A stretch of DNA of 64,000 bases from Perna viridis (taxonomy: Eukaryota). The stretch covers positions 4,340,001-4,404,000 of the forward strand of contig CM074511.1 of the NCBI GenBank assembly GCA_037379345.1, in the 5' to 3' direction. Under the pieces are notes generated by a model. That model saw nothing but the letters and a program-made list of their open reading frames with translations. It had not been told where the DNA came from and did not search any database. Below, piece by piece: positions 1-64,000 of the stretch. Numbering within the stretch: the stretch's first letter is position 1; each line of letters opens with the position of its first letter. The translations under genes and the position numbers were made by a program.

Positions 1-65
1 TGATATTCCTGGAGACTTTCGTCGAAAGTCAGTCCTTCGGTGATAGTGAGCATATCGGCCATCAT
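1..65 (-). CDS. N-terminus of probable Polinton major capsid protein (PY, double jelly-roll), truncated by window edge
   Basis: Minus strand reads MMADMLTITEGLTFDESLQEY, resembling the D-(I/M)-L-x-I...(F/V)-D-(E/D)-S-(I/L)-x-x-Y start I recall for Polinton MCPs; preceded by the TAGATAAAT motif. Only 21 codons visible. Confidence 0.6.
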   Translation of the reverse strand, partial: MMADMLTITEGLTFDESLQEY

Positions 66-69
66 ATAT

Positions 70-417
70 TTATCTATAGCGCTGGACGAAGTCATGGATG
101 GTGGCGATGCCCCCACCCGAGATGAGATTATTGAGACGGACCTGCTGCTGTGAGGTCCTCTTGACCTTGGAGGATGGTGCTTGGAGTGCATTTTTCTTGC
201 GAGTCACTCGATGGACGACGTGGTCATCGGCCTTGGTCGCACCTTTCTCCACGCCTTTCAGGGCTGCATTGGAAGCGGCGCTCACGGCCTTGCTACCCAG
301 CGTCTTCGCGGCGGAAGAGGTAAGCACACGTCCGGCCAGACTGGTGATGGTATCGAATAGTCCTCGTCCGCCGACTGCATACTTCCGACGATAACCGTGA
401 TTCACTACTAAAGGCAT
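70..417 (-). CDS. Small basic Polinton protein (putative virion core / membrane-active precursor)
   Basis: 115 aa, K/R/A/S-rich; GG-type motifs (YAVGG-RG, LISGG-G) resembling adenain sites; amphipathic GLFDTITSLAGRVL after the first. Confidence 0.7.
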   Translation of the reverse strand: MPLVVNHGYRRKYAVGGRGLFDTITSLAGRVLTSSAAKTLGSKAVSAASNAALKGVEKGATKADDHVVHRVTRKKNALQAPSSKVKRTSQQQVRLNNLISGGGIATIHDFVQRYR

Positions 418-428
418 CGTAAATTTAT

Positions 429-1030
429 CTAGAGGAGCCCCCGATGCAGCTTCTCGTACTCATCCCTGCTGATATGACCGGACTTCCTCATGGCGTCGAG
501 GATGGCCATGATTTCGTTGCGCACCCCGTCTTCCACGTCGAAATCTTTGGGGTGTTTCAGGACCATAAGCTCCCACAGGCCGGGGGTGCCCTTATAGCGC
601 TCGCCATCGATGAAGATATCGTCTCCGTCGGAGGTGACGGGCAGACTTCCGATCATGATGTAGCCGTCATCCACTCGCAATCCAAAGGTATGGTCGGCCT
701 TGGGAGTCATACTGACCTGGAGATAGTGCGTCGCTCGCGGACCGAGGCTGGTACTCAATGCTTGCTCGATGGGCAGTGGGTCGTCGTCGTCCCCGGCAGC
801 AGGGAAAGGAGGGGTAAGGGCAGGCATCGGGGCAGGCAGAGCAAGTGGGATTTCTTCGATCTTTTTGGTGATCTGGGAGGCAGTCTCCTTTTGCGACTCG
901 ACCACGGGCTTGAATATCTTTGAGAGGTCGCGACTGAGTCCGATCTTATCTAGGCGACGCTGCATATCGCTAGCCTGGATGCTAAGCTTGGTCTCCTGCA
1001 AGTCCCTAGCAAGCGCCTCATGTTCAGCCC
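429..1030 (-). pseudogene. Conserved Polinton accessory protein (YKGTPGLWEL family), N-terminally and probably internally deleted
   Basis: Motifs LSKIFKPVVESQ, DHTFGL, IG...DDIFIDGERYKGTPGLWEL, GVRNEI...ISRDEY; the 5' end is replaced by short direct repeats at ~1022-1105. Confidence 0.7.
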
Positions 1031-1181
1031 ATCGCCCCTTAGCGTTCAGCCCATCGCCCCCCATCGCCCCATAGCGTTTGATCGAACGCCCCATAGCGTT
1101 GGATCAATCATTCTCCCATGCTTTTTGCCTCCTGCCTCAGCGGGATGCAAAAACCGTGGATTCCCGAAGTGATGGCGGATC

Positions 1182-1717
1182 CTACGCACTTTCCATGCAT
1201 TTGGAGGAGCAGAAAGGCTCGTGGCCGATCCTCCTCTGGGCTTTGCGGAGATCGTACTCTCCCACAATCCTCACTTTTACGCCCGACCAGAGGGTGGCAA
1301 ATTTGGGTACGTATATAATCTCGTGGATACGGTGCAAGACCTTACCGCGGGCAATCTTAGCACCACACCGATAGCATACCTCGGGGAAAAGCTTCAAATG
1401 TCTCTTGCACTTATCACTGCCCGATATGGAGGGATACGTGCACTGATGGCCGCGGACGGTCTTGATGCAGCATGGGAGTCCGGGCGGTTGCTTAGGTTTG
1501 CGGGAGGGCTGAAAATTATAGGCCCTTCCTTCGAAATCCTGATCATCGATGCGGTGAGCGTACCTTTCAGCTCCACATCTACTGCAGCAATACCCCGGGA
1601 TATCGCCATTAATAAGCACGCGCTCCCACCGGTGCTTGCATTCAGGGGGTGGTCGTGGGGGCTTGGGGGCATTCTCCCGATCCAAGTCCAGTTGAAAAAT
1701 TCCTGCAAGTGATCCAT
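1182..1717 (-). pseudogene. Cys/His-rich multi-zinc-finger protein; probable 1-nt frameshift near 1692
   Basis: ATG at 1717 (MDHLQEFF) follows an AGATAAA motif and joins the 1685-1182 frame by one frameshift; ECKH...CCSRCG, C-x7/8-C-x10-C-x2-H, CYRCG and FCSSKC motifs. Confidence 0.55.
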
Positions 1718-1725
1718 TCTTTATC

Positions 1726-2687
1726 TTAGACTCGATAGAAATCGTCTAGATTGCATCGATATTTCCCATCCGTCTTGGAGCTTGTGAGATCGATGGTCAT
1801 AAATCCGTGAGACTTGGCCCAGCAGTGATTGCATAGGGCATCGAATTGAGCCGAGGTGAGATGGCCGCAATGGTCCCGGCGGATATGATCGCGATTTTTG
1901 GCATCCTGGTCAAAGAGGCAGACGAAGTTTGCATTCTCCCGGATCGATTGCCGCGGGAGCTTGAAGTAATTTTGGCAGCTTGTGAGATCGATGGTCATAA
2001 ATCCGTGAGACTTGGCCCAGCAGTGATTGCATAGGGCATCGAATTGAGCCGAGGTGAGATGGCCGCAATGGTCCCGGCGGATATGATCGCGATTTTTGGC
2101 ATCCTGGTCAAAGAGGCAGACGAAGTTTGCATTCTCCCGGATCGATTGCCGCGGGAGCTTGAAGTAATTTTGGCAGAGGTAGAAGCAGTCCACGTTATTA
2201 TGGCGACCGCGCACGTAGTAGTCTTCGCACTTGCTCTGCTTGCTCAGCATCAAGTCGTCGAAGACCATGAGGTTCTTGCGGGTGGGATCGAGCTCTCGAG
2301 GATCCGGCACATCGCTCACCTGCTCAAAGAAGAAAGGTTCGATACCGCTAGGCTTGGTCGGCGGCTTCATCATCTGCACCACGTCGACCAAAGAGTGGGG
2401 GTAGCGATCCTTGATGGAGAGAAGGTTGCGGATATCGTCTTTCGAAAACCCCTTCCCAGCGTCTGCCACAGTAGCTGGTAGATGGGCTGGTGGAGCGATT
2501 TACCGAAGACGTAGAGGCGATCGTAGTCGAGCCATCCATCGCGCAGGAGGAGGTTATTCAGCAGCGTCGTCTTGCCGCAGTCCGACTTTCCGATGATCAG
2601 ACCTCGGATGGATCGCTGCGGGAGGAGAAAGTGGTTATGCCGACGACTCGCGGTGGGCTCATCGTAGGTAAGGTCTTCAACGTCCAT
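1726..2687 (-). pseudogene. A32/FtsK-type DNA packaging ATPase, frameshifted (~2455), with an internal 198-bp duplication
   Basis: Walker A GKSDCGKT (D where G is usual), Walker B LMVFDD, RGRH motif, QNYFKLPRQSIRENAN; split over ORFs 2370..2687 and 1726..2469. Confidence 0.92.
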
Positions 2688-2704
2688 TTATCTATATAAA
2701 ATGG

Positions 2705-4108
2705 GAGTGCAAGCGGCCGACCGAGACAGAAAGTCGCTATGAGACCACCACCAACAATGGGAGGCGGCGGAGGGGTGGGCTATGCGCCGTTTGCGGGGCT
2801 AGGAAGTCTCAGTTCCTCCGAGGGAGCGAGGGTGCGGGACTCGTAAATAAGATGATCAACCATCTGCCCGTGGAGATGCATCTGCCGGGACATAATTTTA
2901 CCGGGCCGGGCACCCAGCTCCATAAGCGTCTAAATGCAGATGGCACCCCCAAGGTTTGGTCGAAGCCCATTAATCGGGTGGATCAGGCCGCCTATCGGCA
3001 CGATCTCTGCTACGCCAAGCATAAGGATACTGCCGCTCGCAATTCCATCTGCGATAAGGCCATGCTAGCCTCACTGGACGCCATTCCCAATCCCACCGTC
3101 CGGGAGCGCATGGACCGCAGCATCGTGAAGCCCATCATCGGCACCAAAGCACGATTTGGGCTGGGAGTGCGGGAAAAAAAAGTACGATGGTCGGACGAAC
3201 TAGCCGAAGAGCTGCATAAGCCAGTCCGACGCAAATTCCAGAAGCGTCGCGTGGTGGTAGGTGGGGTGGATGAGACCTGGGCTGCCGATCTCGTGGATAT
3301 GAGCGCCTTCTCCCGCGATAACCGAGGCTTCAAGTATCTCCTGAGCATCATCGACGTCTTTTCAAAGTACGGCTGGTTGGTATCGCTCAAGGATAAGAAA
3401 GGCGCCACGATACGAGATGCCTTCCGGACCGTCTTCAAGGATCGCACGCCCGAGAAGCTATGGACCGATAAGGGCACGGAATTTTACAATCGTGAGGTGA
3501 AGGATCTGCTTCGGAAGCACGACGTCGATCTCTACTCCACCGAGAATGAGGAAAAATCGAGCGTGGTGGAGCGCTGGAATCGTACCATGAAGGAAAAGAT
3601 GTTCAAATACTTCTCGGCCAATTCCACGCGGGCCTACCTTCCCGTCCTGGACGATCTCGTCCGCCAGTATAATACCACCAAGCATCGATCCATCAAGATG
3701 ACCCTTACCGCGGCCAGCCAGAAAGAGCACGAGTCCAAGGTCTTCTGGAATCTCTACGGAGACCTCCCACCCATGCAGCCTCAGCGATTCAATGTCGGCG
3801 ATAAGGTCCGGATCACCAGGAAGAAGGGCATCTTCGAGAAGGGATGTACTCCGCGCTGGACGAAGGAAGTCTTCACCATTGCCCAGACCCTATCGACGCA
3901 GCCGCCCACCTATCGTCTCACAGACTATGAGGGTGAGGAAATCAAGGGATCCTTTTATGAGCCCGAGCTCCAGCACACCGACCAGGATATCTATCGCATC
4001 GAGAAAGTCTTGCGCCGGCGGACCCGAGGAGGGACGAAGGAAATCTACGTCAAGTGGAGAGGCTACCCCAAAGAATTCAATTCCTGGATCAAAGAGTCCG
4101 ACTTGTAA
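2705..4108 (+). CDS. Polyprotein: Zn-ribbon / parvovirus VP1u-like PLA2 domain / rve (DDE) integrase / chromodomain
   Basis: Frame open from 2705 (ECKRPT...NGR...CAVCGARKSQF) into ATG 2852; LPGHNFTGPGT...DQAAYRHDLCY (PLA2-like); WAADLVD / WTDKGTEF / VVERWNRT (D,D,E); C-terminal YRIEKVL...YVKWRGYPKEFNSW (chromo). The ATG at 2701 is out of frame by one base. Confidence 0.93.
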   Translation, partial: ECKRPTETESRYETTTNNGRRRRGGLCAVCGARKSQFLRGSEGAGLVNKMINHLPVEMHLPGHNFTGPGTQLHKRLNADGTPKVWSKPINRVDQAAYRHDLCYAKHKDTAARNSICDKAMLASLDAIPNPTVRERMDRSIVKPIIGTKARFGLGVREKKVRWSDELAEELHKPVRRKFQKRRVVVGGVDETWAADLVDMSAFSRDNRGFKYLLSIIDVFSKYGWLVSLKDKKGATIRDAFRTVFKDRTPEKLWTDKGTEFYNREVKDLLRKHDVDLYSTENEEKSSVVERWNRTMKEKMFKYFSANSTRAYLPVLDDLVRQYNTTKHRSIKMTLTAASQKEHESKVFWNLYGDLPPMQPQRFNVGDKVRITRKKGIFEKGCTPRWTKEVFTIAQTLSTQPPTYRLTDYEGEEIKGSFYEPELQHTDQDIYRIEKVLRRRTRGGTKEIYVKWRGYPKEFNSWIKESDL

Positions 4109-4161
4109 TGATCCCCAGCAGGCTTTCCGGTCTCGATCAAAGGAGACCAGAAAGTCTTGAT

Positions 4162-4602
4162 TTACACATGCTTCAGTTCGACGAAGAGCCTTAATGCGTC
4201 TAGATCCTCTTTCAAGCGGTCGTAAAGTGCTTTTGTGATGGGCTCGTTATCAGTCCGGGGGAGTGGGAGATTTAGTAGGTGATACTTTCGCATGTCTAGA
4301 TCCGAATTCACCTTACCGCTGTCTGACTTATCGACTTTGCCATCTTCTACGGCCATCAGCTTTTTGGTCAGGTCTTTGATCGATGCGTCATGCTCCTTTT
4401 GCATCTGCTTAATCTCCGAATCTAGCTCATCGATGTCTTTCATGCTGTCTTTCAATTGTTGGCTGACCCATCGCTTCGTCACGGCGTCCGAGCTGTCTCG
4501 GGGCAAACCGAGGCTGGTGATCCGATGATCTTTCATATCGAGATCCTGAAGCATCCGCCAGACGGGCATGCGCTTTCTCGAGTGAGATCCAAACTTATCC
4601 AT
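4162..4602 (-). CDS. Putative fibre/spike-like protein (two neck-type repeats around a coiled coil)
   Basis: DLDMKDHRITSLGLPRDSSDAVTKRWV and DLDMRKYHLLNLPLPRTDNEPITKALYD resemble the I-x-N-L-x-x-P...DA(A/V)TKxYVD repeats of phage tail fibres and trimeric adhesin necks; heptad-rich middle. Confidence 0.6.
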   Translation of the reverse strand: MDKFGSHSRKRMPVWRMLQDLDMKDHRITSLGLPRDSSDAVTKRWVSQQLKDSMKDIDELDSEIKQMQKEHDASIKDLTKKLMAVEDGKVDKSDSGKVNSDLDMRKYHLLNLPLPRTDNEPITKALYDRLKEDLDALRLFVELKHV

Positions 4603-4606
4603 TTAT

Positions 4607-5020
4607 CTATAGTCCGAAGATCACCTCCTCGAGCGTCCGACCTTCCGATAAGAGCTTCAGTACGTGCAGGCAAAAGTGCCCGCAGACCACGTCGCCGCGC
4701 CACTGGAGCTCATCGGTATTATATCGAATTTCCGGCTGCAGATAGTCGACCATCTCGTCGGGTGGAGGCAGGCCGTAGGAGTCGAAGTAGACTTTGAATC
4801 CTCCACACTTATGCCAGCATGTCCAGTGCGTGCCCTGACCATGACGATCGTCGTGATTCAGGATACCGCACTCGGTGGGATGGGGGTTGGGTGGTAGGGC
4901 ATCGCGCATGAATATTCCTCTGAATCGAGGGATGCCTAGGGCTGTGGCAGCTTCTTCCAGCTCTACGTTGGAGAGGGGCTTGTGGGGGAGGAGGATACCA
5001 TGCACTCGTATGCTGCTTAT
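4607..5020 (-). pseudogene. Adenain-type (clan CE) cysteine maturation protease; start codon apparently mutated ATG>ATA
   Basis: GTHW (His), YFDSYG (Asp), LQ...VCGHFC (Gln, Cys) intact; frame extends to TAGATAA-ATA-AGC-AGC-ATA-CGA-GTG, with ATA at 5020-5018 where neighbouring genes have TAAATG. Confidence 0.88.
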
Positions 5021-5024
5021 TTAT

Positions 5025-8000
5025 CTATGGATGGGCAGGCGAAGCCGACGAAGTCCCGCACCCGTCAGAGCCTGAGAAGTGCAGATTTTTCCCGAGGTTC
5101 ATGGGCCTCGAGAAATTCTGAGTGGAGGGGGATGGGTTGGGGATGGTCGCCTCAGTCGCGGGAGATTCGGTAGTGACCATGCGCAAGGGTGCTGATACCG
5201 TCGGGGAGGATGTGGCGCTTATCGTCCTTGGCTGAGAGAGCAATCTTGTTTATCTCCCCGGCGTAGATCTGATGGAGATGGCTGCGAAGGATGCTCATCG
5301 GTCGGTGGATCTCCTGCTGAGTCTCAAGGCATCGCTTGTAATCCTCGAAGGCGATGCTACCTTGATGACGCTCTTGGTGACTCCCTTCGCCTTCTTGGTG
5401 GTCTGACCGTCATTCATTTTGAAGGCGTATAGCTTGGCCCGGAGCCCCACGAATTCGGCCATGATCTTACCGCTGCATTCGTCTTTGAACATCCCGATGA
5501 CCTTCTTATTCACGCCGGTGGGGATGTCGGAGGGATGCTCGGCCGGGTAGTATCGAATTTTTCCTACACGTGCGGTGTGATATCCTTGTAGAAGTTGGCG
5601 GTCTGGATCTCGTAAGCCAAGCTATCGGTGTCGGTGAAAAGTAGTCGGGCACGATCACCGTACATCTCCTTCACGAATCCGTAGTGGAAGTCGTACATAA
5701 GGAGCTTCGAGATGTCCAATATGCACGCTCCCAGGTAGACGGGCTTATCGAACTTCAGCTTGGTCTTCTTCATATGAACGGCTGCTAGATTCTCGGTGAA
5801 GACGACGCGACGATCGAAGTTGGGCTCGGCCACTAGCTTCAGGGCCTGCTTCTCGGTGGTGACCAGCCTGACGTCGACGTCCGGATATTCTCCATGGTCT
5901 TGCTGAAGACCGAATTATTCATGAGCTTGAAGAAGTCCTTCTCGGAGTCGGTCTTGGCCCGGGCGCGAAGAGTGGTATTCAGATCGATGTATTTCTTGAG
6001 CCATGGAGATTGGCTGAATCCGATGATGCGATGGACTTTGGTGAGCTTCATCCCCCTCTCCAGATACATCTTGAGATTACGATAGTGAAGGGTATATTTC
6101 TCACGCTTGCCCAGGTGAGGCACGAGCTTGTGCACTTTGCCGACCTCCACGTTCTCGGGCGCGAGAGGGTAGTCTTTGTGGGCGTCGTGAAGATCTTGAG
6201 GATATTCCAGATCGCATTCCACCATGGCGTCGTACTCGTGGTCGTCGGGATATTCCAGGATCTTCTCGATCTCCTCCGGCTCCATCCACTCGAAGTCTCC
6301 CGTGGGAAGGGACTGCACCATCGCCCACCCGTAGAGATTGTTGGCGTCGAGGTAGGTCAGATACTTGGTGGGCTGGGAGGCGTCGTACGTGGTCATGTAG
6401 GGTTTGTTGGCCTTGCGTAGCGGTGGGTGATCATGGCGACACCCCCTCTGGTTGCCCTCTCGAACATCATCAACATGTCCGGATCGGAGAGCAGCTCCAA
6501 TCTCACCTCCGTGGTTTTGAGGGCGGCGTCGTAGGATAGCCCGGGGGATGTGAAGTAGTGGGCGGGATCGAGTCCGTAGTGGGTCAAGCAGATATCCCTG
6601 AAATCCTCAAAGATGTCGGTCAGCAGCAGCACGTCAGTCTCGAGATAGAGGTCGTGATAATTGCGTATGTTTTTGCACCCGAAGGTCTCCCAGACCCTCT
6701 GAGCGTGTGCGTAATCCTCATCACTGATATGCTCTCCGGAGAGCGTGCTGAAGAAGGCTTCTTTGGTTGGGAGCTGAGTATCTTCCAGCTTGACCGGCCC
6801 ATCCATATAATCGTAGGGAAATACCCCCTTCCGAATCATTAGCTCGTGGCGATCGCCGAATCTCGCCTTCACGGTCGCGAATTGGTCGGGGTGAGATTCT
6901 TAGCTAGGGTATCCAGGCTGTTGAGCATAAACCTGCACGAATCGACGAATCTCATCTCCAGATCGTCCACCTGCTTGGAGAAGCTGATATACTTCTCGTC
7001 GTTATTGGGGATGCAGTTGATCTTACCCTCGGTGTGGCCAGGCTCCTTGACGAAGATATGAGCGTTGTATCCGCTCAAATTGTGGAAGAAGATGGGGACG
7101 TGCTTCGGAAGCTGGAAATCCAGATTGCACTGGTTGTGCGCTGCGCCGCGATATTTCCCGGTGAGGTGGTCGTGATCCCGGACCTTATCCCCTCTCAATG
7201 CATCGCCACAGATGTGGCAGCGCGTGCTTGCTTCGAAGCGCGCCTTATCGTCGTCGGTCATCTCCATGGGCTTATTCTCCTTGTATAGTTTGGAGATGGC
7301 GCACACTTCTTCCTTCTTTCTTGTACGCATTGTACAAATTTCTTGGCCGCATCCTCCCCGCAGTAGACGACTGGATCTTTGTAGTCGCCGTGAGCGTATT
7401 TCACGTAATAGCAGAAACCCGAGGGTCGCTGCAGTTGATAGGCCTTCGTGTAGGAGTGTGATGGAACCGGCTGACAGATGTTGAGCTTCTCCGTGAAGCA
7501 CTCGAAATCCGCGTATATCGCGAAGGGGACTCTCATCATCTTGAGATTATGGAAGGTTATGGTGGCTCCTTCTTCCGGCATCTCGATCTCTTTCTGGGTG
7601 CAATACTCCATGTGCTCGTCCAAGATGTCCTGCCTGGAAAAGTGGGAGAGGCATCTGCGGCAGAAGAAGAGCTCGTGACCAAGCTCTGAGATTTGGGAGC
7701 TCAAGAGTCGTGAGAGGCTCTTGATCCAGCAGTAATGCTGCTTATCTTCGCTAGTCAGGAAGAGAAGATCTACGTGGGTGGAACCCGTATTCTGGATATC
7801 TTGAGTGGGTAAACCTGGATATCCTCTTCACCATCCTCACCCTTCTTCACCCCATTAAACCTATAGACGTTGACGTTGATGGTGGGATTCTGCCTCTCGA
7901 ATTTATCAATCGCCTTGAGCGAGACCGGGAAGTTGATGCCTTCGAAATTCAGCTCATCCTCCCATTTCTTGTACTGAGATACGCGGTTGGCTGATTTCTG

Positions 8001-8716
8001 ATCGACTTCTTCATGATGTAGGGCTGCCAGCACCGCCCACTGGAAGCAGCGATCATCCTCATTGTTCACGTTGACGATCGCCTTCTTTTTTGCGAGTGCT
8101 GATGGAGTCGGAATGAAGGAACCCCCCTTGAGCGGCTTGAATTGGTTGAGGTGGATTTCTAGCTTCTCGACGCGGCTGAAAGTCCACCCACTCCCTTCCC
8201 GCATGTATCTTGCCATACTTTCCTTGATCTTCGCGATCATGAAAGCGATCTCCAATTCGAGGTCAGATGACTGGTGAGGGTAGCAAGAGATGATCGAAAG
8301 TAGGGGATAACGTACGTATTTTTTCCAGTCGCGGGATTGGTCCTCACCAGCTCTGCTAGAAGTACTAAGTTCACCTTCAATCCCTTCTTTTTGGGCAAGC
8401 GCATCGGAGATGGTGGTGGTGATGGTGCTCCGACTTACCTTCAGAAAAGTGCTCACGTCGTGCGGCTTCGCGGGTTCTATGACGACCGTGCCAAATACGC
8501 CATTCAGTGCTTGACGCCTATCGGTGACCTTGATCTCATCCTCGACTGGGGTGCTTTTGATGTCCTCTTCCACCAGCTGGAGCAGATCCTCTCTCTTGAG
8601 CTGGGAGTACTTGGTGAGGCCACGATTCTTTGCCAGTGCTTTGAGCAGCTGCTTCTTGCTGAAGACTTCCTGGCGGGCAAATCTACGGGTGGTTTTCTCC
8701 TCGATGAGCTTCACGA
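5025..8716 (-). pseudogene. Protein-primed family B DNA polymerase (pPolB) with endonuclease-VII-like insert; multiple frameshifts, 5' end lost
   Basis: ExoI YADFEC, ExoII FHNLSGYNAH, ExoIII YLETDVLLL, PolA YLDANNLYG, PolB KLMNNSVFSKT, PolC FTDTDS, IGMFKDE; CHIC...VRDHDHLTGKYRGAAHNQCN insert; in-frame TAG at 5564-5566. Confidence 0.95.
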
Positions 8717-9363
8717 CAGAATGTGTCGCGTTACGTACTGAAATTGCGTCAATGAAAGCAGAGACAAAAATCATAACAGTCAAAAAAGGAAATTACAAAA
8801 ATAATGAAAGCGAAAGAAAAGCTAATTAGCGATATTGAAGTTATTCAGAGAGAATCAATGCGAGACAATTTACTTTTTCATGGAATAAAAGAGTCAACCG
8901 ATGAAGATTGTGTTGAGATTGTAAAAGAAATTTGTCAGTCAAAGCTTGAGATTGAGGATGATTTAACATCAAAACGGCATTTCGTCTCGGTAAAGTTAAA
9001 CGCTCTGAAAATGAAGATACGGTCCAAAACAAAGAACTAAGCAGGCCAATTCTTGTGAAATTTAGTGATAGGCAGAAACGTGATTCGGTTCGTAGAAAAA
9101 GTTTCAGATTGAAGGGTTCCGACATCTCAATAACTGATCATTTCCCAAAAACGGTGGTGGATAAAAGGCGTTCATTAATTCCGTTTCTGAAGCAAGATCG
9201 TGATGCGGAGGTTAAAGCTGTTCTAATACGTGATAAGTTGTTCATTGGAGGTGTAGTATATTCTGGTGGTTCAATCGAGGACGCGATTAAAGAAGTCACA
9301 AGTCAAAAAATGAAAATTGTTGATAAACATAAAAATAAACCCCATGAAAAAAAACGCAAGTGA
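8717..9363 (+). pseudogene. LINE ORF1 remnant (coiled coil + L1/Transposase_22-like RRM and C-terminal domain)
   Basis: SMRDNLLFHGIKE...EDCVEIVKEIC, RPILVKF, LKGSDISITDHFP, DKLFIGG; frameshifted. Confidence 0.8.
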
Positions 9364-9433
9364 TGCCAGTGGGGCCACGGGCGGTCCTGACGATAATGCG
9401 ATGACATAGAATTCGTCGGAATTATATGTTACA

Positions 9434-12400
9434 AATCTTAAGTGTTTAGACTGGAATATAAATGGTGGTTTTGAAAATAAAATAAAAGATATCAGATTTA
9501 AAAATTTCTTAAGCACTTATGATATTGTATTTCTCTCTGAGTGTTGGATTAATGATACTTGTGATGTAGAAGTTAATGGGTATAAATGTAAATCAATCCC
9601 ATTAGCCAGAAAAAAGTATAAACAAGGATGTGGTTTATTTGTTATGATTAGAAATTCACTTGACAAATTTGTTACTATACTTGATATTTTTTATGAAACT
9701 ATAGTATGGTTAAAAGTATCCAAGGAACTCACAGGCAATGAACATGACTATTTGTTATCTTGTGTGTATGTCCCACCACAGAGATCTTCATTCTATAAGG
9801 TACACGATATAGATTTGTTTTATGAACTAGAGGCCCAGGTTGCAAGATACTCTGATGTTAGCCCAAACATTTTTATTATAGGTGATTGTAATTCTAGAAC
9901 TGGTAATTTATGTGATTTTGTTTGTAATGATGTAGTACATGATAATGTTTTAGATAGAATATGTGAATGTTTTACTTACGTTGCTGACGAGACTCTGCCT
10001 GACAGGAGTAATCCTGATTCTGCGACCAATGACTACGGTATACAGCTTATAAACTTATGTAAGAGCAGTGGTTTACGAATCTTGAACGGTCGTCATGCCG
10101 ATGGTATGGCAAATGACATTACGTACAGTCCTTGAGGTATGAGTGTGATTGACTATGTGCTATCAAAACCGAGTAACTTCAAGTTTGTATCACAATTTAT
10201 AACTAGTAACTTCCCAACATTTAGTGATCACGCACCTTTACATATTCAATTAGAAATAAACTTTTGTACAGAAAGTGTTAATAACGAACATAGTAATAAC
10301 CCAGGGAATGAAGCTGTGATTTTCAAATGGAATGATGATTTTAAGGACCCGTGCTTTAATGCACTGTTAGTTAATTCTGATATATTGAATGCAACAATTA
10401 ATCATTTTGAATTTGCTTCCCAGGAACAAATGGACTAGCCCCGTGCAGGTCCGGGTGTTAAAAGAATAGGCCTGCAGCAGCGCCAAGCTTGTCGTATAAG
10501 GCGACTAAATAGTGCTCAGAAACCTAGCCGGGGGCTAGGCGCTCTGCCCACAGAGCAACTGGGATGTGTGCCCCAGGTGGTGGAATGGGGTACCCCTGGC
10601 GTGTTACATGCTGGGGTTGTCAGGCTATAATACGGAAAACCTGACCGCAAACCATAGTGGTGCACCGTGTTGGGAAAGTTGCCACGTTCCTCGTACGTTA
10701 AAGAACCCTGCTGTGGTATTCGATAGGAGTAGAAACCTTTGCGCTCCGCCACAGGAGGCTAAATTGCCCGACCTTGCCCTTCCCCCCTTTTTCCAGTGGC
10801 AATCAAAATTTGTCGACCCTATTGTTCTTGTGTCCCATCCTTTTTTTTTCATTTCATGTTCATTTTATCATCCATTTCATGTTCATCGTCTGAATATAGC
10901 TGAAGTATTGCTGCTCGGACGTTAAATCCCAACAAACAAACAAACAAACAAACAAATGGACTATAGTATAAATCATTGTTCAGAGACCTTTGTAAATGTT
11001 ATGTCTCCATTCTTCAGACAAAACAAAAGACAGAATCGTAAACCTGACACAATCCATGAAGATAAACCGTGGTTCGATCGAAGGTGTAAAGAACTTTATT
11101 CAAGCTATCATTCAGCGCTGTTTATATTTAACAGAGGCAAAATCTCAATCATAACGCTTTAAACAATGCTAAAAAAGAATACAACTTCTATGAACGTAAA
11201 TGTAACCGTCTTTATAAGCGACAGCAAGGTGATATGCTCAATAAACTTAGGATTAATAATTCAAAGCTGTTTTATGCAAAATTTAGGAAAAAAAATACTA
11301 GGAACTGTGATTTGAATGCAACTGATTTTTTTGAATATTTCAAAAATCTAGTTTCTGATGTATCAGACGGTGATGTTGATCTGGAGATGCCCGACAATGA
11401 ATGTATTTTTGAAGTCTTGGACTCGCATATTTCTTCTGATGAGATCATCGGCGCCATTAGTCAGTTGAAACGTGAGAAAAGTCATGGCCCTGATTGTTTC
11501 TTAAACGAATTTTTCATCGAATACAAGAACATTATGTTACCATATTTACGCACAATTTTTAACGCAGTGCTTGATTCTGGTTATTTTCCGGCATCATGGA
11601 CTGATGCTATTCTTGTTCCTGTTTTTAAATCTGGTGATGTCAACGATCCAGGAAACTATCGTGGTATAAGTCTTGTCAGTAACCTAGGTAAATTGTTTAC
11701 TACAATATTGAATCTTAGAATCTAAAATGGGCATCGAGTAACGATATGTTAACTGATGCACAATTTGGTTTTCGTAGTGGTTATAGTACTGCAGATGCAA
11801 TATTTTGTGTATATTCTGCTATAGAAAATGTATTGTGCAAAGGAAATAGATTATATTGTTGTTTTGTAGATTATAAGAAGGCGTTCGATTCAATAGATCG
11901 CATGTGTTTATGGTATAAAGTTGCTAAATTGGGAATTAGAGGAAAATTACTTACAGTTCTGAAATCCATGTATAACAATGTTAGAACATGTATTCGCTAT
12001 AATGGGTTTAATTCTGATTTTTTCACCAATAGTTTATTTTCATTTTATGTTAATGATTTTGAGCTCGAGTTTATCTTAGAAGGTATTACACCACTAGAAT
12101 TTCAAAATATTACACTTTTCTTATTAATGTATGCTGATGATATGATTTTAATGTCTGAATCAATTAATGGGTTGCAAAATATGCTTAACACTTTGTCGAA
12201 CTATACAGAAAAATGGGGTCTTATTGTTAACATAAGGAAAACTAAGATAGTTATATTTCGTAGAGGTGGAGCTGTTAGAGCTCAAGAGGAATGGTTTTAT
12301 AATGGTAATAGATTGGATATTGTAGACAAATTCTGTTATTTGGGTGTATTGTTGCGTTACAATTGTAAATTTCTTATAACACAAAGGCATTGTGCTGAAC

Positions 12401-13317
12401 AGGGTAGAAAAGCCAGGTTTGGCTTACGGAAAACTACATCATCTTTATTTTTGAATGTTTTTACTATGCTGAATCTATTTGACACTTACGTAGTTAGTGC
12501 ATTATTGTATGGTTGTGAAATATGGGGTGCACATAAAGCCCCAATGGTTGAAAAAGTACATTTAGATTATTGTAAGATGATACTTGGAGTGAAAAGGACA
12601 ACATGTAACGTCATGATTTATTATGAACTTGGAAGATATCCTTTACAATATGAAAGTTATTTTAGAATGATAAAATTGTGGTATAAAATTTTGAAAAGTG
12701 ATAACTGTATTTTGCAGTCTTGCTACAAAGAATTGGTAGATATTTGTGCCAATCATAACAACTGGGCACGATGTATTAAGCAAATATTATATCGTATAGG
12801 TTTATATTACCTGTGGGGCAATCAATTTGATATTACTTTAGATAAGTTTTGTGTATATGTTATCAAAAAACGTTTGTTTGTTCATGCTCAACAAGATCTT
12901 TACTCTGTATTAGATGCTACTTCAAAAGGTAGAATTTATAAATACGTAGTTTCTAATGCTGAACTTCAATTTTATTTGAAAAAATGTGTTATCCCTGTTG
13001 TTTATCGTAAATATATCACTAAAATCAGATTGTCTGCGCACATTCTGTTTATTGAAACAGGGCGGTATTATAATACTAGTAGAGATACTAGACTTTGTAA
13101 TATGTGTCAAATGAATGTAATTGAGGACGAGTTTCACTTCATTTTACAATGTAACTGTTATATTGATTTACGTAAAAGATTTATAAAAAAGTATTATTGG
13201 TCTAGGCCTTCCGCCTTTAAACTTGTTCAACTACTAGCTGTTGAAAACACAAAAGAGTTATGCAACTTAGGCAAATATTTATGTCATGCATTTACAATAA
13301 GAAACGCATCTATATAA
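9434..13317 (+). pseudogene. LINE ORF2 (APE endonuclease + reverse transcriptase), interrupted by a SINE, stops and frameshifts
   Basis: WNING, LSECW, VYVPP, IGDCNSRTG, SVIDY, SDHAP; PGNYRGISL, QFGFR, FVDYKKAFDS, LMYADD, YLGV; RLSAH..IETGRY..C..C..EDEFHF..C. The QGxxLSP motif is deleted (FFTNSLFSFYVND). Confidence 0.92.
10438..10950 (+). mobile_element. SINE-like element, copy A (structured non-tRNA head, (AAAC)n tail)
   Basis: Perfect 13-bp TSD AACAAATGGACTA at 10425-10437 and 10951-10963; interrupts LINE ORF2; closely similar to copies B-D. Confidence 0.93.
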
Positions 13318-19893: not shown

Positions 19894-20392
19894 TTGATTG
19901 ATTGATTGATTGATTGTTGAGGTTTAACGCCCGAGCAGCAATATTTCAGCTATATCCAGGTGATGAACATGAAATGATGATGATGAAAAATGGGATGGGA
20001 CACGAGGATAATGGGTCGAGAAATTTTGATTGCCACTAGAAATAGGGAGGGATGGGTAGGGTCGGGCAATTTAGCCTCCTGTGTAAGAGCGCAAAGGTCC
20101 CTACTATCGAATATCAAAGTAGGGTTCTTTAACGTACAAGGAACGTGGCATCTTTCCCAACACTGTGCACCACTATGGTATGCGGTCAGGTTTTCCGTAT
20201 TATAGCCTGACGACCACAGCATGTAACACGCCAGGGGTACCCTATTCCACCACCTGGAGCACACAATCCAGTTGCTCTGTGGGCAGAGCGCCTAGCCCCC
20301 GGCCAGGGTTCTGAGCACTATTTAGTCGCCTTTTACGACAAGCTTAGCGCTGCTGCAGGTCTATTCTTTTTATAACCGGACACGTACGAAGC
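19894..20392 (-). mobile_element. SINE-like element, copy B
   Basis: Reverse-complement match to copy A; (AATC)n tail; imperfect TSD catat(c/t)actga at 19883-19893 and 20397-20407. Confidence 0.9.
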
Positions 20393-36422: not shown

Positions 36423-39400
36423 ATGAATAATAACGCACTGGCAATAGGTGATTTGGAATGGGGACAGTGTATGTTAACGGGTGTTTTAATAAGGCTCGGA
36501 CAGCTAAGTCTTCTGCAATGCGCTAAATATTGCAGAAGGATCCCAATGTGTTTTTCTATAAATTATAGATACAATTGGGATCTGTGTGATTTGATCTCGG
36601 AATACAACACTGACACCTCAAATATTGATAAAAACCAGTTAACTGCCGAAATAGGTTGTGTTCACAGCTATATATCTTCATGGCCGAAGGTAAGTCATCA
36701 TTCATATGTTGGCATTGAACACTCAGAAAAACTTAACAATAAACCGTAAGGCTAAGGATTCTAGAGAGTATGGTCCGCTCAAATGTTAAAAAATAATTTT
36801 TTTTATATTTCAAGGAAAATTATCCAATCGTAATACAACGCGTACGGCGGCAATGTTTTACACTTAATTTTGCATAAATGTCATAAGTAGATGGTGATGC
36901 CCACTTTGTTAATGATTTAAAGGCAGATTTCAGACAAAGACGGCGACGGATACATAGTAATGAAGAAAATCTCATTCACTGGTCCAGTTGAGCTAAAAAG
37001 CTAGTCGCTTATGGTTTCATCTTAACACTTGTCATAGGTCATAGAAAATTTTCTAGTTATAAAATACAGATATACATTTATTGTGTTGGTTCTTGTGTTT
37101 CATCTTTTCTGTATTAAATGGGTATACTACGCAACTACATGATTTTATTTATTGAATTATAGGATATAGTCCCAGAATGTGTTAACAACGCGTGTCCTGG
37201 TGGCCATGCATGCAAACATGACGGCAGTTGCGTTCCTTCTTGTAAGTTCTTTCATATAGAAAAGGAACGGTGCTAAATTTTGTGTCAACCTTTTTTATTT
37301 ATTCTTAAATCAAAAATAAATTACGCCGAGGTTCAGATCACAAATGTAACAAATTGATAAAAGCATAATAGCATAATTCATTGGAGAAATAAAAATAATT
37401 ACCCGTGAGCGTTGTAAACGCAATGACTCAGCACGTGTATATAAATTAGTTAAATTGCTTTGGCAATTGATAGTATTCCCACATTAATGGCTCGTTTGAT
37501 ATTATTCTCACATTATTGGCACGATTGATAGTATATTTCCGAAGTTTCGACAGTATAGTAGGAAATTATTGTATTGACGGTACTAGTGAAATGTTTCATG
37601 GGATAGTTATCACGTGATGAAGATTTTGAGCGGGAATATGTTCCCTTTGTTATCACATTCTAGCCAACACTTGACTGGTCAACACTCAAGTTTCAGTGAA
37701 AATATAGCAGATATATTTTTTTGTCTTTGCTTAAATTTTATTATTATGATTATAATTTTTCTTTCAATAATATTTGATAAATATGTCATAGACATAATAT
37801 TCTATCTGATGTTTTCCAATCTTCTAAACATATACTTCGTCCAGGTATAACTCTTGAGACGGTCTTTTGAATTGGGTATGGACACAGGTTTCCAAAGAAC
37901 TTTACTACATATTAAGTAGTTGCACTTTTGATAAACACGGGATTACCCCTTTTTATAGAGAAATTGTTAGGTGTTCCATACAGCTTTATAAAGTTTTTTC
38001 CACAAGTAAAAATATGATTTTTTTGCATTCTTAGGTCTAAATTAACTATCAGTATGAAACGTCATTCTGCTATAATATAAGCATTGTTAAGATGCACTAA
38101 CGTAACAGATATATCAATAGCGAAATTCAAACTAACGAACAGCACGAACCAGACTAACCAACATCATGAACCAGACTAAAGAACATCATAAACCAAACTA
38201 ACGAACATCATGAACCAGACTAAAGAACATAAAAAACCAAACTAGCGAACACCACGCACCAGACTAACGAACATAATGAACCAGACTAAAGAACAGCACG
38301 AACCAAACTAACGAACAGCACGAACCAGACTAACGAACAGCACAAACCAGACTAACGAACATCATGAACCAGACTAAAGAACATCACGAACCAAACTAGC
38401 GAACAGCACGAACCAGACTAACGAATAGCACGAACCAAACTAACGAACAGTTCTAACCAGAATAATGAACAGCACGAACCAAACTAAAAACTGAGTGTAA
38501 AGTCAGTTGCTCCAGAAGGGTAAGCAGTTCATGGTTCTTGTATGACACCCACCGTGCTATTCGTTGAAGGTCAAGATGGGTGATATGATATCAATAGCAG
38601 ATGGAAACCATTGTTATACTGGACACAGACATTCCTTGTCGGTCAATCGGACCATGGAATCCACTGTAGAACTTTTATGATATCTATCTTCATCTGGATT
38701 GATTTTTTCTGAAGCCACTGAGGCATGCCTAGAAAATGTTAATGTCAAGAAACCAAATCAAAGTTATAGTCGCATTTTTCTAGATTAGCTTATGGGCTCC
38801 ATACTGAAATGGAAAAGGTTGTTAAATGACTTTCCTACAATCTTTTGTTTTTAATTTGCTGAACAATACAAAGGATTGTCAAAAATATTGAGACCTTTCA
38901 ACTGACCAAGTTGATGAATCCTTACCTGTAAATATTTTAAAAACCAGATCTTGTCTAAAGCAGCTATCTGGTTTATTCAATTTTTCATTGGTGAGGGGAG
39001 TTGAAATTTGATGAATGAAATTTTGTTTTGTGTTCTGTTGACAAGGCTGAAAGAATAGTTTAAAATATCCATTTTTATCTTAACCACACTGCATAAAAAT
39101 CTCATATATATTATAAGAATGAGACCTCAATTCATGTTTATTCCGTCTTTCATACAAATGGAATAGTCCAATTAAGATGGGCCCCGTGCAGGTCCGGGTG
39201 TCAAAAGAATAGGCCCGCAGCAGCGGTAAGCTTGTCGTAAAAGGCGACTAAAAAGTGATCAGAACCCTAGCCGGAGGCTAGGGCACTCTGCCCGCAGAGC
39301 AACTAGGTTGTGTGCTCCAGGAGGTGAAATGGGGTACCCCTGGTGTATTACATGCTGGGGTTGTCAGGCTATAATACGGAAAACCTGACCGCAAACCATA

Positions 39401-42400
39401 GTGGTGCAACGTGTTGGGAAAGATGCCACGTTAAAGAACACTTCTGTGGTATTCTCCCGAAGTAGGGACCACAGGGCCCAGTGGCAATCAAAATTTGTCG
39501 ACCCCTTTATCCTTGTGTCCCATCCCATTTTTCATTTCATGTTAATTTTATCATCCATTTTATGTTCATCGTCTGGCTATAGCTGAGATATTGCTGCTCG
39601 GGCGTTAAACCCGACAATCAATCAATCAATCCTATGAATATGGCCTTTTGATAAAAGGTGTATGATTCCTACTACATTTAAGGAACAAGTGTTATACAAA
39701 ATGTGATCAGTTTGAGGTTCAAATGAATTACAATTTCTGAAATACTGCCACGAGTTTTTTAAATGAATTAATTGCTTAATAAAATGTGCATTTAGTGGAG
39801 TCGAAGTTGCTCATTTATTTTTGTTACTATGGATGCCGCGGAGGACTACGCAAGAAAACGGATAAAACCAAAACAAGAAGGCATTGATTCTTTGTCAAAG
39901 TGGATAAAAAAAATTAAAAATCTTCATTTTTGAAACGAAAGTACAAACATGTAAAACATTGAGTATTAATGCTACATCAGTTTTCGAAGACCCCGAAGAC
40001 ATTGTTTACTATATATGACAAATATGTTGTCGTACCAGCAGACAAAGCCCAAAACAACATTGGTTTTTGTCTGCAAAACGTATTACATCCAATGTTTATT
40101 ATCAGAGGCAGGCGTAGAAAATAACAGCAGTGATAAGACATATACTGCCATTACACTCTCCCAACACGTGTTAGTGGATAACCATAAATATGTGATATCC
40201 TCTTTTGGTTTCTCTACCAAAGACGATGGCTGTGATTTACCGTCTATGTAATGGATTTCTAAACTCCACAAGAATCCATACAAACAAAGTTACATAGCTG
40301 GATCTGCAAAATGTACCACCGAAGCTCTTTCAAAACTTAACTTCTATACCCACAGCTATCAAAGAGGGTCTCCAGTCTTACCACAACACTTGTTATTGGT
40401 ATTAATTCAATGTGGATCCTTTTGGAATCCCTCAATTCAAGATTATTATCAGAATATAATAGCATTAAAACCTATGGTTTTTCAACACTGTGTACTTCTA
40501 TTCCCCATACTCAGTGAAAATCCCGACTCAAAAATATTATACATCATTGTTTCTCAAAAAAAAAAGATGGTACACCTAGATATAAATATATAGTTCTTGG
40601 TAGAAATTTTTTATACTCTGTTAAAAATATTTCCAAATCATCTTCCAAATATACAGAAGATGTTTGCAAAGTAGATGTTTTGGAGGAGTATATATTCTGA
40701 ATACAAAAACCAGTACTGAATGGATTCAGATTTGAGATGGAATGATTCAAATAAATAGTAGCATCAAATTATTGCTTCAATTTATGGTTTATTTCATGAA
40801 AATGTTACTATAACAAGTTAATTGGTTTTTCGTTATTGTCGTTATGTTGACATTTCATATTTGTTATCCAGTTGGGGGGGGGGGGGGGGCTGTGGGTTTA
40901 AAGTTTTTTTTAATCTTGGAAAAATAAAACAGAATTTTCCCGACCATTAGTTTTCCACATTAACACTTATGTTTGCAAGTACAAAAAAGCCATTGAATAT
41001 ATTTCTGTTAACTGGTTAATCCAATAAAGAAATAACAAAAAATTAAAAGTTAAAAAAGCACAAAATTCCCCCAAACACATTGTGAGTAATTTTCATAAGC
41101 TGAGAATTTTCCATAAGATTTAAAAATAGAGAGGATTGGCTGCTTTCCACATGCCCAAGTAAATCTTCATAGGTGAGTTGCTAACTAACATCAACTGTTA
41201 CAATAGCAACTGGTCGTTTTTAATGTCCCAATAGCTTTGTCAATTTTTTGTATTGTTCAGCAGATTGATAACAAAAGAGTGTCATGGTTGCAGTCGCTAT
41301 AACAATGTTAAAATAAATGTATTTGTGTTTATTCTAGAGTTTAGTTGAAAGTAATCCGTTTAAAAAACTGGCTCGAACATTAAGTCTGAATTGGAAAACA
41401 GACCGGAACACTGTTATTTGTAAAGCTGTGGTGTCTCCAGATGTGAATCATAGCACGCTCATATCTGAATGGATAGTGCCCCGACAATCCTAACAAAGTG
41501 AACCCAATCGCACATTCAGTCTGTTGACCATTTCCTTCAGTACAAAAATTCTTAACATTACAAACTTATCAAACCATCTTCGATCAATTTAAATGATATA
41601 TTGACTATAACGATGACGAAAACATTGTACTATATCAAAAGGTGGAATTAAGAATGGCAAAACAAGCAACATTCTAATAACCTACTTTTTCTTCCCTGGT
41701 AACCTACACACAAAAAGTCATGATGACTTAAGTTGCAAATCGACGAAATTAATCTACTTATGTAGTCTTGTATATGTCGGTGAAACACAAAAGCGAATGT
41801 GTGGTCATATTTAGAACTAATACCTACAAATTTCCGACCGTTTATGGACATTTTAATCAATAGAATCATTCAATCCTCTCTATGGAAGTTCGTATTATTG
41901 AAAAAAAAAGTTTTAAGTAGGTCAAAGAGTATTAATGCTTCATCAATTTCAAAGACTCCGATGTAGCCAAGTATATATGACAAATATGTTGTCTTACCAG
42001 CATACAAAGCCCAAAACAATCGAAGACAATAATAGCAGTAATAAGGCATATACTACCACACTCTCTTGAGATACTGTAAACCGGGACAGTTCGCGAGTTT
42101 TATGTTCTCTATTTTCGTGGTAAATCCCGTAACGCGGAAATAAACTCTCATAAATATTTTCGTCAAGGGAAATTATAGTACAATTTGGGGAAAGATTGCG
42201 AATTCAAAACTGCGCAAAACGTATTCATTGCATAAACCACGAAAAAAAGACGGCTAAAAATTACTCGGTTTACAGTAGTAAAAACATAAAGCCGTGTTAT
42301 ATCCTCTTTTGGTCTCTCTATAGATCTATACAGTGGATTCCAAAACTCTACAAAAATTTCAAACAAGCAACGCGTCATAACTGGATCTGCAAAACGTACC

Positions 42401-51187: not shown

Positions 51188-54100
51188 TCAAATTTTTTTC
51201 TGACATAACGGAAAACCTTTGTAATTGTCACCTGTATCATGCCATCTAAAATCATCCTCTTTATAAAGTGATATGAAGTTTATATTATATTTGTAATCAG
51301 GTTGGACAATAGGATTATTTCCCCAATCAAAGAAACCCATTAGAGATCTTTCATCGAAATACCATATGGTTTCACTTCGGTGGTTTTTGCCCTGAATAAA
51401 GACGAATTGAACTGATTCTAAATTCTGACTCCCTGTAAAATAGAACAATGACTATTAATAGATTGCGTGTAGTACGACGAGGCACTATAAGGTAGTTTTT
51501 GGTATATTTTTTACCAGATATGATTGATTGATTGTTGGGGTTTAACGTCCGAGCAGCAATATTTCAGCTATATTCAGACGATGAACATGAATTGGATGAT
51601 AAAATGAACATGAAATGATGATGACATGAAAAATGGGATGGGAAACAAGGATAATGGGGTCGACAAATTTTGATTGCCACTGGAAATAGGGAGAGATGGG
51701 TATGGTCGGGCAATTTAGCCTCCTGTGGCGGAGCCCTATGGTTCCTAATCCGGGAGAATACCACAGTAGGGTTTTTTAACGTGCGAGGAACGTGGCATCT
51801 TTCCCAACACGGTGCACCACTATGGTTTGCGGTCAGGTTTTCTGTATTATAGCCTGACAACCCCAGCATGTAACACACCAGGGGTACCCCATTCCACCAC
51901 CTGGGGCACACAAGCCAGTTGCTCTGTGGGCAGAGCGCCCTAGCCCCCGGCTAATGTTCTGAGCACTATTTAGTCGCCTTTTACGACAAGCTTAGCGCTG
52001 CTGCAGGCCTATTCTTTTGACACCCGGACCTGCACGGGTATTCTTACCAGATATATTAGGTATTTAAAAAATGAATCATTTTTTAAATACCTTCATGATC
52101 ATTTCCTGGATTACATTCTTTTGATTACCGCTATAACCTTGGTTCCCTTGATTACTCTTTCAATGTTCGTTTCATGTGCATGAATTAACTTTATATTGTT
52201 ATGTGTCCCCTCTCGATTGTTAATGACTGCACTTTGCACGTGTGAATATAGATGTGACACACTTGACTGGCATTAGAATATCTGAGATTTTATTTTATTT
52301 TTTCATTTTACGCATTCTATTTATATTAGTATCATAAAAGCAGATTTTTTAAATTATGATACATAAGCATGATACAAGTGAGAACTGTTGTTGGTCAATA
52401 ATAGAATCATGTTAACTGTGAATATTATTGTATCAAGCGAGAACTAACATGATTTACGTATATTCTAAATTCAATCTTTTTCTTGAAGTACAAGGCCCTG
52501 CCTTTTCAACTTTTTTTCTCAATATAATAGGAGATAACAATATATAACATTACTTATAAATAATGTAACATACGCAGATATTGCCGAATATGGTTATTTA
52601 GGTTGATAGAATCTATGCGAATTAACTCAGTGCCTTCCAAGATACATCTTTTCCTTGATTCGTAATACAAACGACTCGTATCACGATGTAACTTGAAACA
52701 GGTACCAGTAAAAGAATCATATTGGTAACCCAGGTCATTGGGACACTCATCTATAATGGATAAATTTAGGGTTGAACAAATATGGATAGGCAAATTTCAG
52801 TTCAACCAAATTAAATCACCAATATATTTTCAGTTGTGAATTTCGTTAAATGTTTGATACAGACTTCTTAATGACAAACAAAATTATTGTTAAGTCGAAA
52901 CTAGTTATTGTATATAACATTCATAAACCATGAATACATACTGAATATTGCATGTCAAATTCTGTATCACATGCTGCATCAACCCTCGACCTATATCACC
53001 CCGCGGGCCGGTGGTCCTTGGGGTGATATAGGAGTCTTAGGTTGATACCACATGTGATGCAGATTTTAACATGTCATGTTCATTATATCATATATTTTAA
53101 CCATACTTCAAGTATGGTGTGTGAAGGGGTGTGATATAAGGTATGCTATGTATGTCTACGGGTGTGATATAGGGTATGCGATATAGGTCTGAGGGTGTGA
53201 TATAGGGTATGCGATATTGGTCTAAGGGTGTGATATAGGGTATGCGATATAGGGCTAGTGGTGTGATATAGGATATGCAATAAAGGATAGACGATATAGG
53301 GTTTAAACAAACACTTATAATGCATATACAAAAAAGTTATATTTTAATTTAAATATATGATATAAAATTATATAGATGAAAAGAAAATAATATGAGAAAT
53401 AATCATTCTTGATAAAATGTAAGAAGTACAAATGGAAAACGAGGAGTAATAATAAAATAACCGAACTGAAATCTAATCAATAATCAAAGAAAAGTCCGTA
53501 TAACAATTGAAAATACCAGAGTAAAAGTTGAAAACCACAAAAATAGTCCTGATTTGAACAAGCATTTCAAATTGAAAGGTGGGTTAAACCAGGTTTTAGA
53601 GCTCGGTTAAAGCACAGTTTGATATACTATGAACATTGAGCTGCAAGACTTGTATGATATCATTTGATATTATCTGGGTAACACACAAATTTAACGTCCC
53701 AAACAGTTTTTCCTAAGCTTAGCATTGTACAAACGGCCACTGGTTTTCCGGCCATGTAAAATCCCTTGTAGCAGCTGTGACGTATACCATATCCAATCTT
53801 TCTATGAAGACCAAACTGTTCTGTCACATTGGCATTTATCGTCTCCAGTTTTTGTGTGCAATCTACAAGTTTATACATTGCAGTTTATACCTTTCATGGC
53901 GAGATAAATTCAATTTACGAATGACAGTCACAACTCTTAAAGTTTATATCATCCATTTTTATTACGTATGAAAATTAAATTTTAACAAAAAGAACGGGAC
54001 GTGAAAAAAATGGTATAATTTTTTTTTAAAAAAGATTTTTTTATAACGTTATCTCAAGCGAATCTATATACCTACAAGACAATTGACATTTCTTTCTCCC

Positions 54101-63939: not shown

Positions 63940-64000
63940 CTGTGGACAATAAAACTGTTCATGAAACTTCAGTACAAGTATGAATGTATTTTTCTTGGCA

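Follow-up and report, generated by a model that had tools for sequence, protein, structure and literature searches.

The SINE family at the Perna viridis locus

The window analysed here, a 64-kb stretch of Perna viridis DNA, carries four copies of a ~510-bp SINE, delimited by sequence comparison. Copy 1 (10438..10950, + strand) consists of head, body and Nimb-type tail, and is inserted into an unrelated host LINE encoding endonuclease/reverse transcriptase (8962..13317, + strand), given here for context only. The others lie at 19894..20392 (copy 2, - strand), 39181..39631 (copy 3, + strand, with internal deletions) and 51521..52040 (copy 4, - strand), and are 90%, 86% and 79% identical to copy 1. 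All four copies proposed in an earlier sequence-only reading of this DNA are therefore real, at 79–90% identity. That reading had also assigned each of them target-site duplications (TSDs) and a head. We found that the TSDs are clear at 10438 and 52038, partial at 20392 and not found at 39181, and that decay has affected the first helix in the head of the copy at 20392.

The family is abundant. In the genome (723 Mb, 46 contigs), 10,862 sites match an 18-mer from the head hairpin exactly, as opposed to 0 for the reversed control. The 30 that come first by position are all members of this SINE family, and their alignments start at query position 1–4. The element is short, present in high copy number, flanked by TSDs and terminated by a simple repeat, as SINEs are; it is a high-copy SINE of the LP type, with an 80-nt conserved and covarying pseudoknot head. 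Two tandem arrays, with units of ~6 kb (G000:C12:15,061,000-15,108,000) and ~3 kb (C15:9,782,000-9,812,000), are built of SINE copies, the latter also of Nimb fragments.

In copy 1, all parts of which are on the + strand, a 13-nt TSD (5′ copy 10425..10437, 3′ copy 10951-10963) encloses the conserved head or LP domain (10438..10516), two further hairpins (10523..10556), a SINE body (10557..10888) and the tail (10889..10950). The body includes a 9-nt word (10670-78) that weakly matches mollusc CORE SINEs. The head lacks the Pol III layout with A and B boxes that marks SINEs headed by tRNA, 5S or 7SL sequences. No tRNA was detected in it by ARAGORN, and Rfam gave no match at gathering score in the window and only weak matches, away from the motif, in eight further motif loci, which bears out the earlier view that the head is not derived from a tRNA. 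The accompanying claim that Pol III boxes are missing holds for the B box, but one A-box-like word is found by pattern at 10578.

The head is composed of an H-type pseudoknot followed by a stem with an internal loop and a capped hairpin. Stem S1 (10440..10455; 10440-43 with 10452-55), placed by TSD ends and covariation, encloses the loop nucleotide U10444 and the 5′ strand of the pseudoknot helix S2 (10445..10475; 10445-51 with 10469-75), which is backed by covariation and a permutation test. A conserved linker word (10463-68) directly precedes the 3′ strand of S2. Farther downstream (10479..10516), delimited by permutations and the alignment, the closing stem P3 (10479-85 with 10510-16) surrounds an internal loop and the hairpin P4 (10491-94 with 10502-05, 7-nt loop). 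Every helix named in the sequence-only reading was recovered at its position. Of the eight loop pairs that it had drawn from 10444-51, the conserved S2 retains seven, as the eighth, involving U10444, is frequently disrupted in related sequences. The final two hairpins (10523-10556) are present, yet they are specific to the window SINE family, absent from other families and outside the shared motif. A single head copy folds no better than its own shuffles (z -0.75, with an energy model without pseudoknots), and hence the case for structure rests on covariation and not on energy.

The 5′ boundary of the element was surveyed in 52 copies, a set that leaves out the duplicate of window copy 1, window copy 2, seven tandem-array loci and three segmental duplicates. 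A TSD was found in 35 of them, 9–15 nt long in 33 of the 35. It ends 2 nt before S1 in 18 copies, 1 nt in seven, 3 nt in six and elsewhere in four; thus, in 31 of 35 cases it stops 1–3 nt before S1, which defines a sharp 5′ end. The element start is 2 nt before S1. Position -2 is G in 34 of 50 copies and -1 is C in 44 of 50, while bases farther upstream are mixed.

At the other end, the tail stem-loop (10889-10926) is followed by (CAAA/CAAT)n. Stem-loop layout, terminal words and a 4–5-nt repeat are common to the SINE tail, the tail of a Nimb-type LINE described below (L273) and that of a young Nimb LINE family of the same genome. Because the SINE and the Nimb LINEs have tail layout and terminal words in common, a Nimb LINE, of one family or another, is the likely mobilising partner. 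The end of the SINE tail (10918-10927) also resembles the 3′ half of the coremin xrRNA motif, possibly by chance.

Covariation of the head and its retroelement relatives

The search patterns with which relatives of the head were collected did not contain the pseudoknot. Among 24 representatives, hand-chosen and partly by eye, the S2 strand after the linker word forms on average 6.2 of 7 pairs when matched to the upstream loop of the same sequence, against 4.9 when matched to foreign loops, a difference reached by none of 20000 permutations, in statistics that ignore kinship. Eighteen of these representatives were aligned, leaving out two weak viral copies (both in contig L067) and four SINE copies. 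In the alignment 94.1% of paired cells are complementary, compared with 75.1% after shuffling and 27–52% in slid controls, and two-sided changes occur at all seven S2 pairs and at two of the four S1 pairs. P3 likewise prefers its own over foreign partners (20 of 20000 permutations were as good). P4 is invariant across the alignment, partly owing to the search design, as P4 was searched for. An older subfamily within the Perna viridis genome (L270) carries two compensatory changes in S2. Both viral L067 copies pair only 4–5 of 7 positions in S2, and only 65 of the 123 metagenome matches listed, a set with single decayed copies in it, pass a strict pseudoknot test. The proposed pseudoknot thus has covariation across families behind it, and these comparisons indicate that the head is a conserved RNA structure and not only a conserved sequence. 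In several metagenome subfamilies the S1 hairpin lies 60–140 nt upstream of the linker word, still at the apparent start of the element; consequently, the knot tolerates long linker insertions.

The head sequence and the SINE class are already in the literature, so the element is not novel as had been supposed. Matetovici et al. (2016; PMC4758252) described LP SINEs of molluscs in which the initial ~70 bp correspond to the 5′ ends of Nimb-17_LMi, I-3_DR and RTE-9_CPB, and suggested that this LP (“LINE promoter”) domain is a putative promoter. Judging by the accessible part of that work, the head is the same: the scallop alignment (supplementary fig. S2) and Pan_3 share the C-run start, the linker word and the hairpin core; by eye, the scallop sequences form the same pseudoknot with other pairs, and TSDs, a microsatellite tail and a LINE-derived head are likewise common to both. 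Homology of the window head to the Nimb-17 5′ domain was recognised by eye in that figure, and the same motif is present at the 5′ end of L273. What differs is that LP-SINEs are described there as carrying a promoter, with neither RNA structure nor viral occurrence in the portions available, and that the oyster LP families measure 256 bp as opposed to ~510 bp for the window family. The available part of Kojima (2018; PMC5786205) covers LINE 5′ pieces in SINEs without the LP motif, and that of Martelossi (2024; PMC11481361) leaves the term LP-SINE unmentioned. No paper on the RNA structure of the head or on viral copies was found by our search, outside which lay subscription journals, Repbase and Dfam. 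New, as far as that search reaches, are the conserved covarying RNA structure and the viral copies, while the SINE class and the head sequence are known.

We found that the motif also forms the 5′ end of an intact Nimb-type LINE on a GTDB scaffold (L273:1908-8036, G001:C4), with an ORF1 frame of 521 aa and an ORF2 frame of 1238 aa containing endonuclease, RT and RNase H. Model R1, whose training set included L273, gives this 5′ motif 74 bits. This supports the earlier suggestion that the SINE head was captured from a LINE 5′ end. The scaffold is labelled as a bivalve gill symbiont, a bacterial-type gene (PF19931) lies ~1.1 kb away and no TSD was seen; the LINE is there either through host contamination or as a real insertion. 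A head-bearing LINE was not found in the Perna viridis genome with two narrow patterns, whose two and four matches were all SINE copies.

A metagenome scan yielded at least 122 stretches, mostly animal-type SINE heads of several families, and the motif accordingly caps many animal SINE families. A bacterial home was considered and rejected, since seven of 19 GTDB matches look true by eye and sit in animal-type SINE/LINE context, most with simple-repeat tails, and the remaining 12 get no score or at most 20 bits. Short animal-type LP-head SINEs were also seen inside contigs assigned to bacterial genomes (L258, L267 and L269 on GTDB contigs, and L171), which are likely assembly chimeras. In L122, L160, L168, L181 and L185, the LP head is followed, by eye, by a tRNA-like segment, a layout as in scallop MESC SINEs.

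The motif in viruses

A 19-nt pattern run against the viral collection returned 10 matches, eight of them with the upstream linker word and the pseudoknot; a pattern requiring the linker word returned the same viral matches, eight of eight. The remaining two represent one phage-like sequence found twice, without pseudoknot and at 21 bits, and named phages gave no motif match. Wider patterns added only one true copy, the second in one contig, and by eye 24 of 32, 24 of 32 and 4 of 7 of their matches were due to chance.

Seven of the eight viral holders are short contigs, six of them distinct (two are 99% identical), and Pfam detected RNA-virus domains in five of the six distinct ones: a tetravirus-type capsid in L062 and L068, RdRP with a nodavirus-type capsid in L066, RdRP with an S-domain coat in L067 and RdRP alone in L064 and L069. 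In L061 no Pfam domain was found. All seven carry the motif on the coding strand, 6–123 nt past the last stop codon and at most 183 nt from the contig end; it is tandem in L061 and L067. The contig ends are without poly(A). In the eighth holder, a 212-kb DNA virus that we take to be an invertebrate iridescent virus, the motif is situated between two ORFs near a NAD-dependent ligase gene, ~130 nt upstream of one ORF. A role as stimulator of stop-codon readthrough was rejected, given that the distance from stop codon to motif ranges over 6–207 nt and that the SINEs have no ORF.

These viral copies bear on the published LP hypothesis, by which the head is an internal DNA promoter and the RNA fold is secondary or a second function. 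A location at the very 5′ terminus of LINEs and SINEs, the conserved sequence words, the copy ~130 nt upstream of an ORF in the DNA virus and the precedent of L1Tc, which combines promoter and ribozyme in one 77-bp stretch, are all in line with it. Yet the motif is carried by RNA viruses, which have no DNA stage, its base pairs covary, and subfamilies differ by more than 100 nt in how far the 5′ hairpin lies from the core, unlike the fixed spacing of a core promoter. We therefore regard a promoter as an improbable explanation.

Two further readings were weighed. The head might recruit ribosomes or a conserved host factor, acting as a cap-independent translation element in viral 3′ UTRs or LINE 5′ UTRs, and might help the SINE to reach the LINE protein. 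A hairpin domain that is nearly invariant from viruses to animals is expected of a binding site, although this invariance is partly built into the search patterns; contig ends without poly(A) agree with such an element, and HDV-like ribozymes at LINE 5′ ends have been proposed to act like IRESs, according to the available part of PMC6765202. Complementarity to the genome's own 18S rRNA is nonetheless at chance level (8 nt, with 401 of 500 shuffles as long), and a translation element alone leaves the SINE start 2 nt before S1 unexplained, which makes this reading rather unlikely. Still less is to be said for a recognition or protection signal for a polymerase (viral RdRP or LINE reverse transcriptase) or against 3′ decay, used differently in viruses and retroelements. 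Such a signal would suit a motif lying within ~200 nt of virus contig ends, and its presence in unrelated virus groups suggests that the motif likely moves as a mobile module; but the polymerases involved are unrelated and the most active Nimb family of the Perna viridis genome does without the motif, and we consider this the most remote of the readings.

Exonuclease block and self-cleavage as possible functions

The exact 5′ ends of promoter-less LINEs and of SINEs without Pol III promoters are an open question for most clades. Covariation and viral copies turn the LP domain into a short, defined RNA with clear predictions. Of the options named in the sequence-only reading, nuclease blocking now leads, while a ribozyme is weakened by the placement in RNA-virus 3′ UTRs and by mostly uncut RNA. 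We tentatively favour, at somewhat short of even confidence, an xrRNA-like head that would act as a roadblock to 5′-to-3′ exonucleases and fix or protect the start of the element. We favour this exonuclease block because it fits at once the exact retroelement start, the 3′ UTR of linear RNA viruses, the tandem copies and a 5′ end at the base of the first stem.

A SINE copy would be transcribed as part of a host transcript, or transcription would begin at the head itself. Once this RNA was decapped or cut, Xrn1/Xrn2 would degrade it as far as S1 and stop there, so that the remaining product would begin ~2 nt upstream of S1. Its tail stem-loop would be bound by a protein of a Nimb LINE, and this protein would copy the RNA into a new site by reverse transcription, creating a duplication of ~12 nt. 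Applied to viruses, such stalling would yield a short, non-coding 3′ RNA. That the heads represent a new xrRNA class passed among unrelated RNA viruses, a DNA virus and animal retrotransposons, with LINEs and SINEs carving their own RNA from host transcripts, is a bolder proposal, possible but doubtful.

The head does place a covarying pseudoknot at the 5′ boundary of the putatively protected RNA, as is characteristic of xrRNAs. As presented in the accessible part of PMC6299227, plant-virus xrRNAs bring Xrn1 to a halt at the base of P1, are known at the start of viral 3′ UTRs and have a downstream stem that is dispensable in vitro. Those of dianthoviruses, Luteoviridae and Tombusviridae resemble the LP head, as far as that source goes, in a 5′ stem whose loop pairs downstream, in conserved nucleotides before the 3′ pseudoknot strand, in a downstream stem-loop, in the position at the 3′ UTR start and in a 5′ end at the base of the first stem. 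In contrast to them, the LP head has no L2 internal loop, differs in sequence, conserves its downstream domain and occurs in cellular retroelements; the P1-L2-P2 arrangement with conserved L1 and L2B is not found, S1 being a 4-bp stem whose loop keeps one nucleotide. The coremin xrRNA-C, as available parts of PMC10520033 and PMC10321173 describe it, likewise contains a short hairpin, identical in the letters of its 3-bp stem, with a U/A-rich spacer after it, and occurs in tombus-like and noda-like viruses, whereas the LP head misfits its YGAD/YGNNAD loop, has another spacer and carries the hairpin downstream instead of 5′; the YGAD or YGNNAD loop with the conserved spacer is present in none of 18 representatives.

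By sequence comparison, the fold matches no described xrRNA class, and its most conserved part is the downstream hairpin domain, 3′ of the knot; both count against a block. So does a background finding, in the accessible part of PMC10321173, that ordinary H-type pseudoknots do not stop Xrn1. RNA 5′ ends, moreover, do not pile up at the head, or at any other position of the SINE, as read starts in the single raw RNA-seq run. The sharp 5′ end itself is predicted equally by a promoter or a ribozyme.

In the RNA-seq run, whose strandedness and selection are assumed, the SINE is covered on both strands, at ~2:1 in favour of the direction that is sense in most stranded libraries. At 10440-43 the depth is ~398 sense-assigned and 236 antisense-assigned reads, and 487 reads carry upstream flank in the four rows listed. 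As these exceed the 236 antisense-assigned reads, at least 251 of the ~398 sense-assigned reads must cross the 5′ boundary uncut. This read-through speaks neither for nor against an exonuclease block or a weak promoter; uncut sense RNA is in fact expected under a block, since it would matter only during decay.

The same reads weigh on the idea that the head is a new class of self-cleaving ribozyme, cutting just before the first G and freeing the element from host transcripts. S1 and S2 are fully paired in 22 of 30 genomic copies, and with so many boundary reads left uncut, efficient self-cleavage is moderately disfavoured, while slow or regulated cleavage is still compatible. In linear RNA virus genomes, cleavage would in addition remove the 3′ terminal 44–183 nt. 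No Rfam ribozyme matches the head, and core words of hammerhead, twister, pistol, hairpin and twister-sister ribozymes are present in 0 of 18 representatives. A ribozyme would, on the other hand, produce the sharp 5′ end and account for the invariant core, and the head stands where other LINEs carry HDV-like and twister ribozymes. HDV-like ribozymes at the 5′ ends of R2, RTE and L1Tc share with it this location, a pseudoknotted fold and a C-N-A-A word before the last stem, but the LP head is a simple H-type knot plus hairpin domain, with neither the nested double pseudoknot nor the P3/L3/P1.1 arrangement; its covarying helices come in another order than P1-P2-P3-L3-P1.1-P4, and Rfam gives no match. 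Also suggestive of a ribozyme is the young Nimb LINE family of the same genome, in which an HDV-like topology stands in the same place and two short words are common with the LP core. Altogether, we judge self-cleavage distinctly unlikely.

This young family is intact at 6.07 kb, with copies 96–99% alike, and has a different 5′ structure in place of the LP motif. In its 5′ region (L300:1401-1550, G000:C8), P1, P3 and P2 are paired at 7/7, 3/3 and 8/8 positions; the structure starts with C, is without the usual GG after P1 and, as in the LP head, locks the 5′ C-run in a pseudoknot. Rfam returned only weak matches for the region and none for its 5′ structure, and the corresponding pattern gave 17 matches in the viral collection, none of them convincing.

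Each leading outcome would be new if true, whether a cellular xrRNA family, a virus–LINE translation element or a ribozyme class. An exonuclease block would add a third way, besides promoters and ribozymes, of defining a retroelement 5′ end, present in more than 10,000 copies in one genome, and that many copies within host transcripts could also shape host RNA decay.

Several other features were observed in the window. Positions 1-8800 contain a broken Polinton/Maverick-like element with an integrase bearing chromo and PLA2-like domains and, by eye, ATPase-like and polymerase-like frames. Between 28000 and 55000, repeated PAN-domain exons (one tested) and, by eye, lectin-like exons are interspersed with pieces of a different retroelement family. 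At 55814-56879 lies a 469-nt inverted repeat (98%) whose arms are separated by 128 nt, and a 28-nt tandem array occupies 61780-64000.
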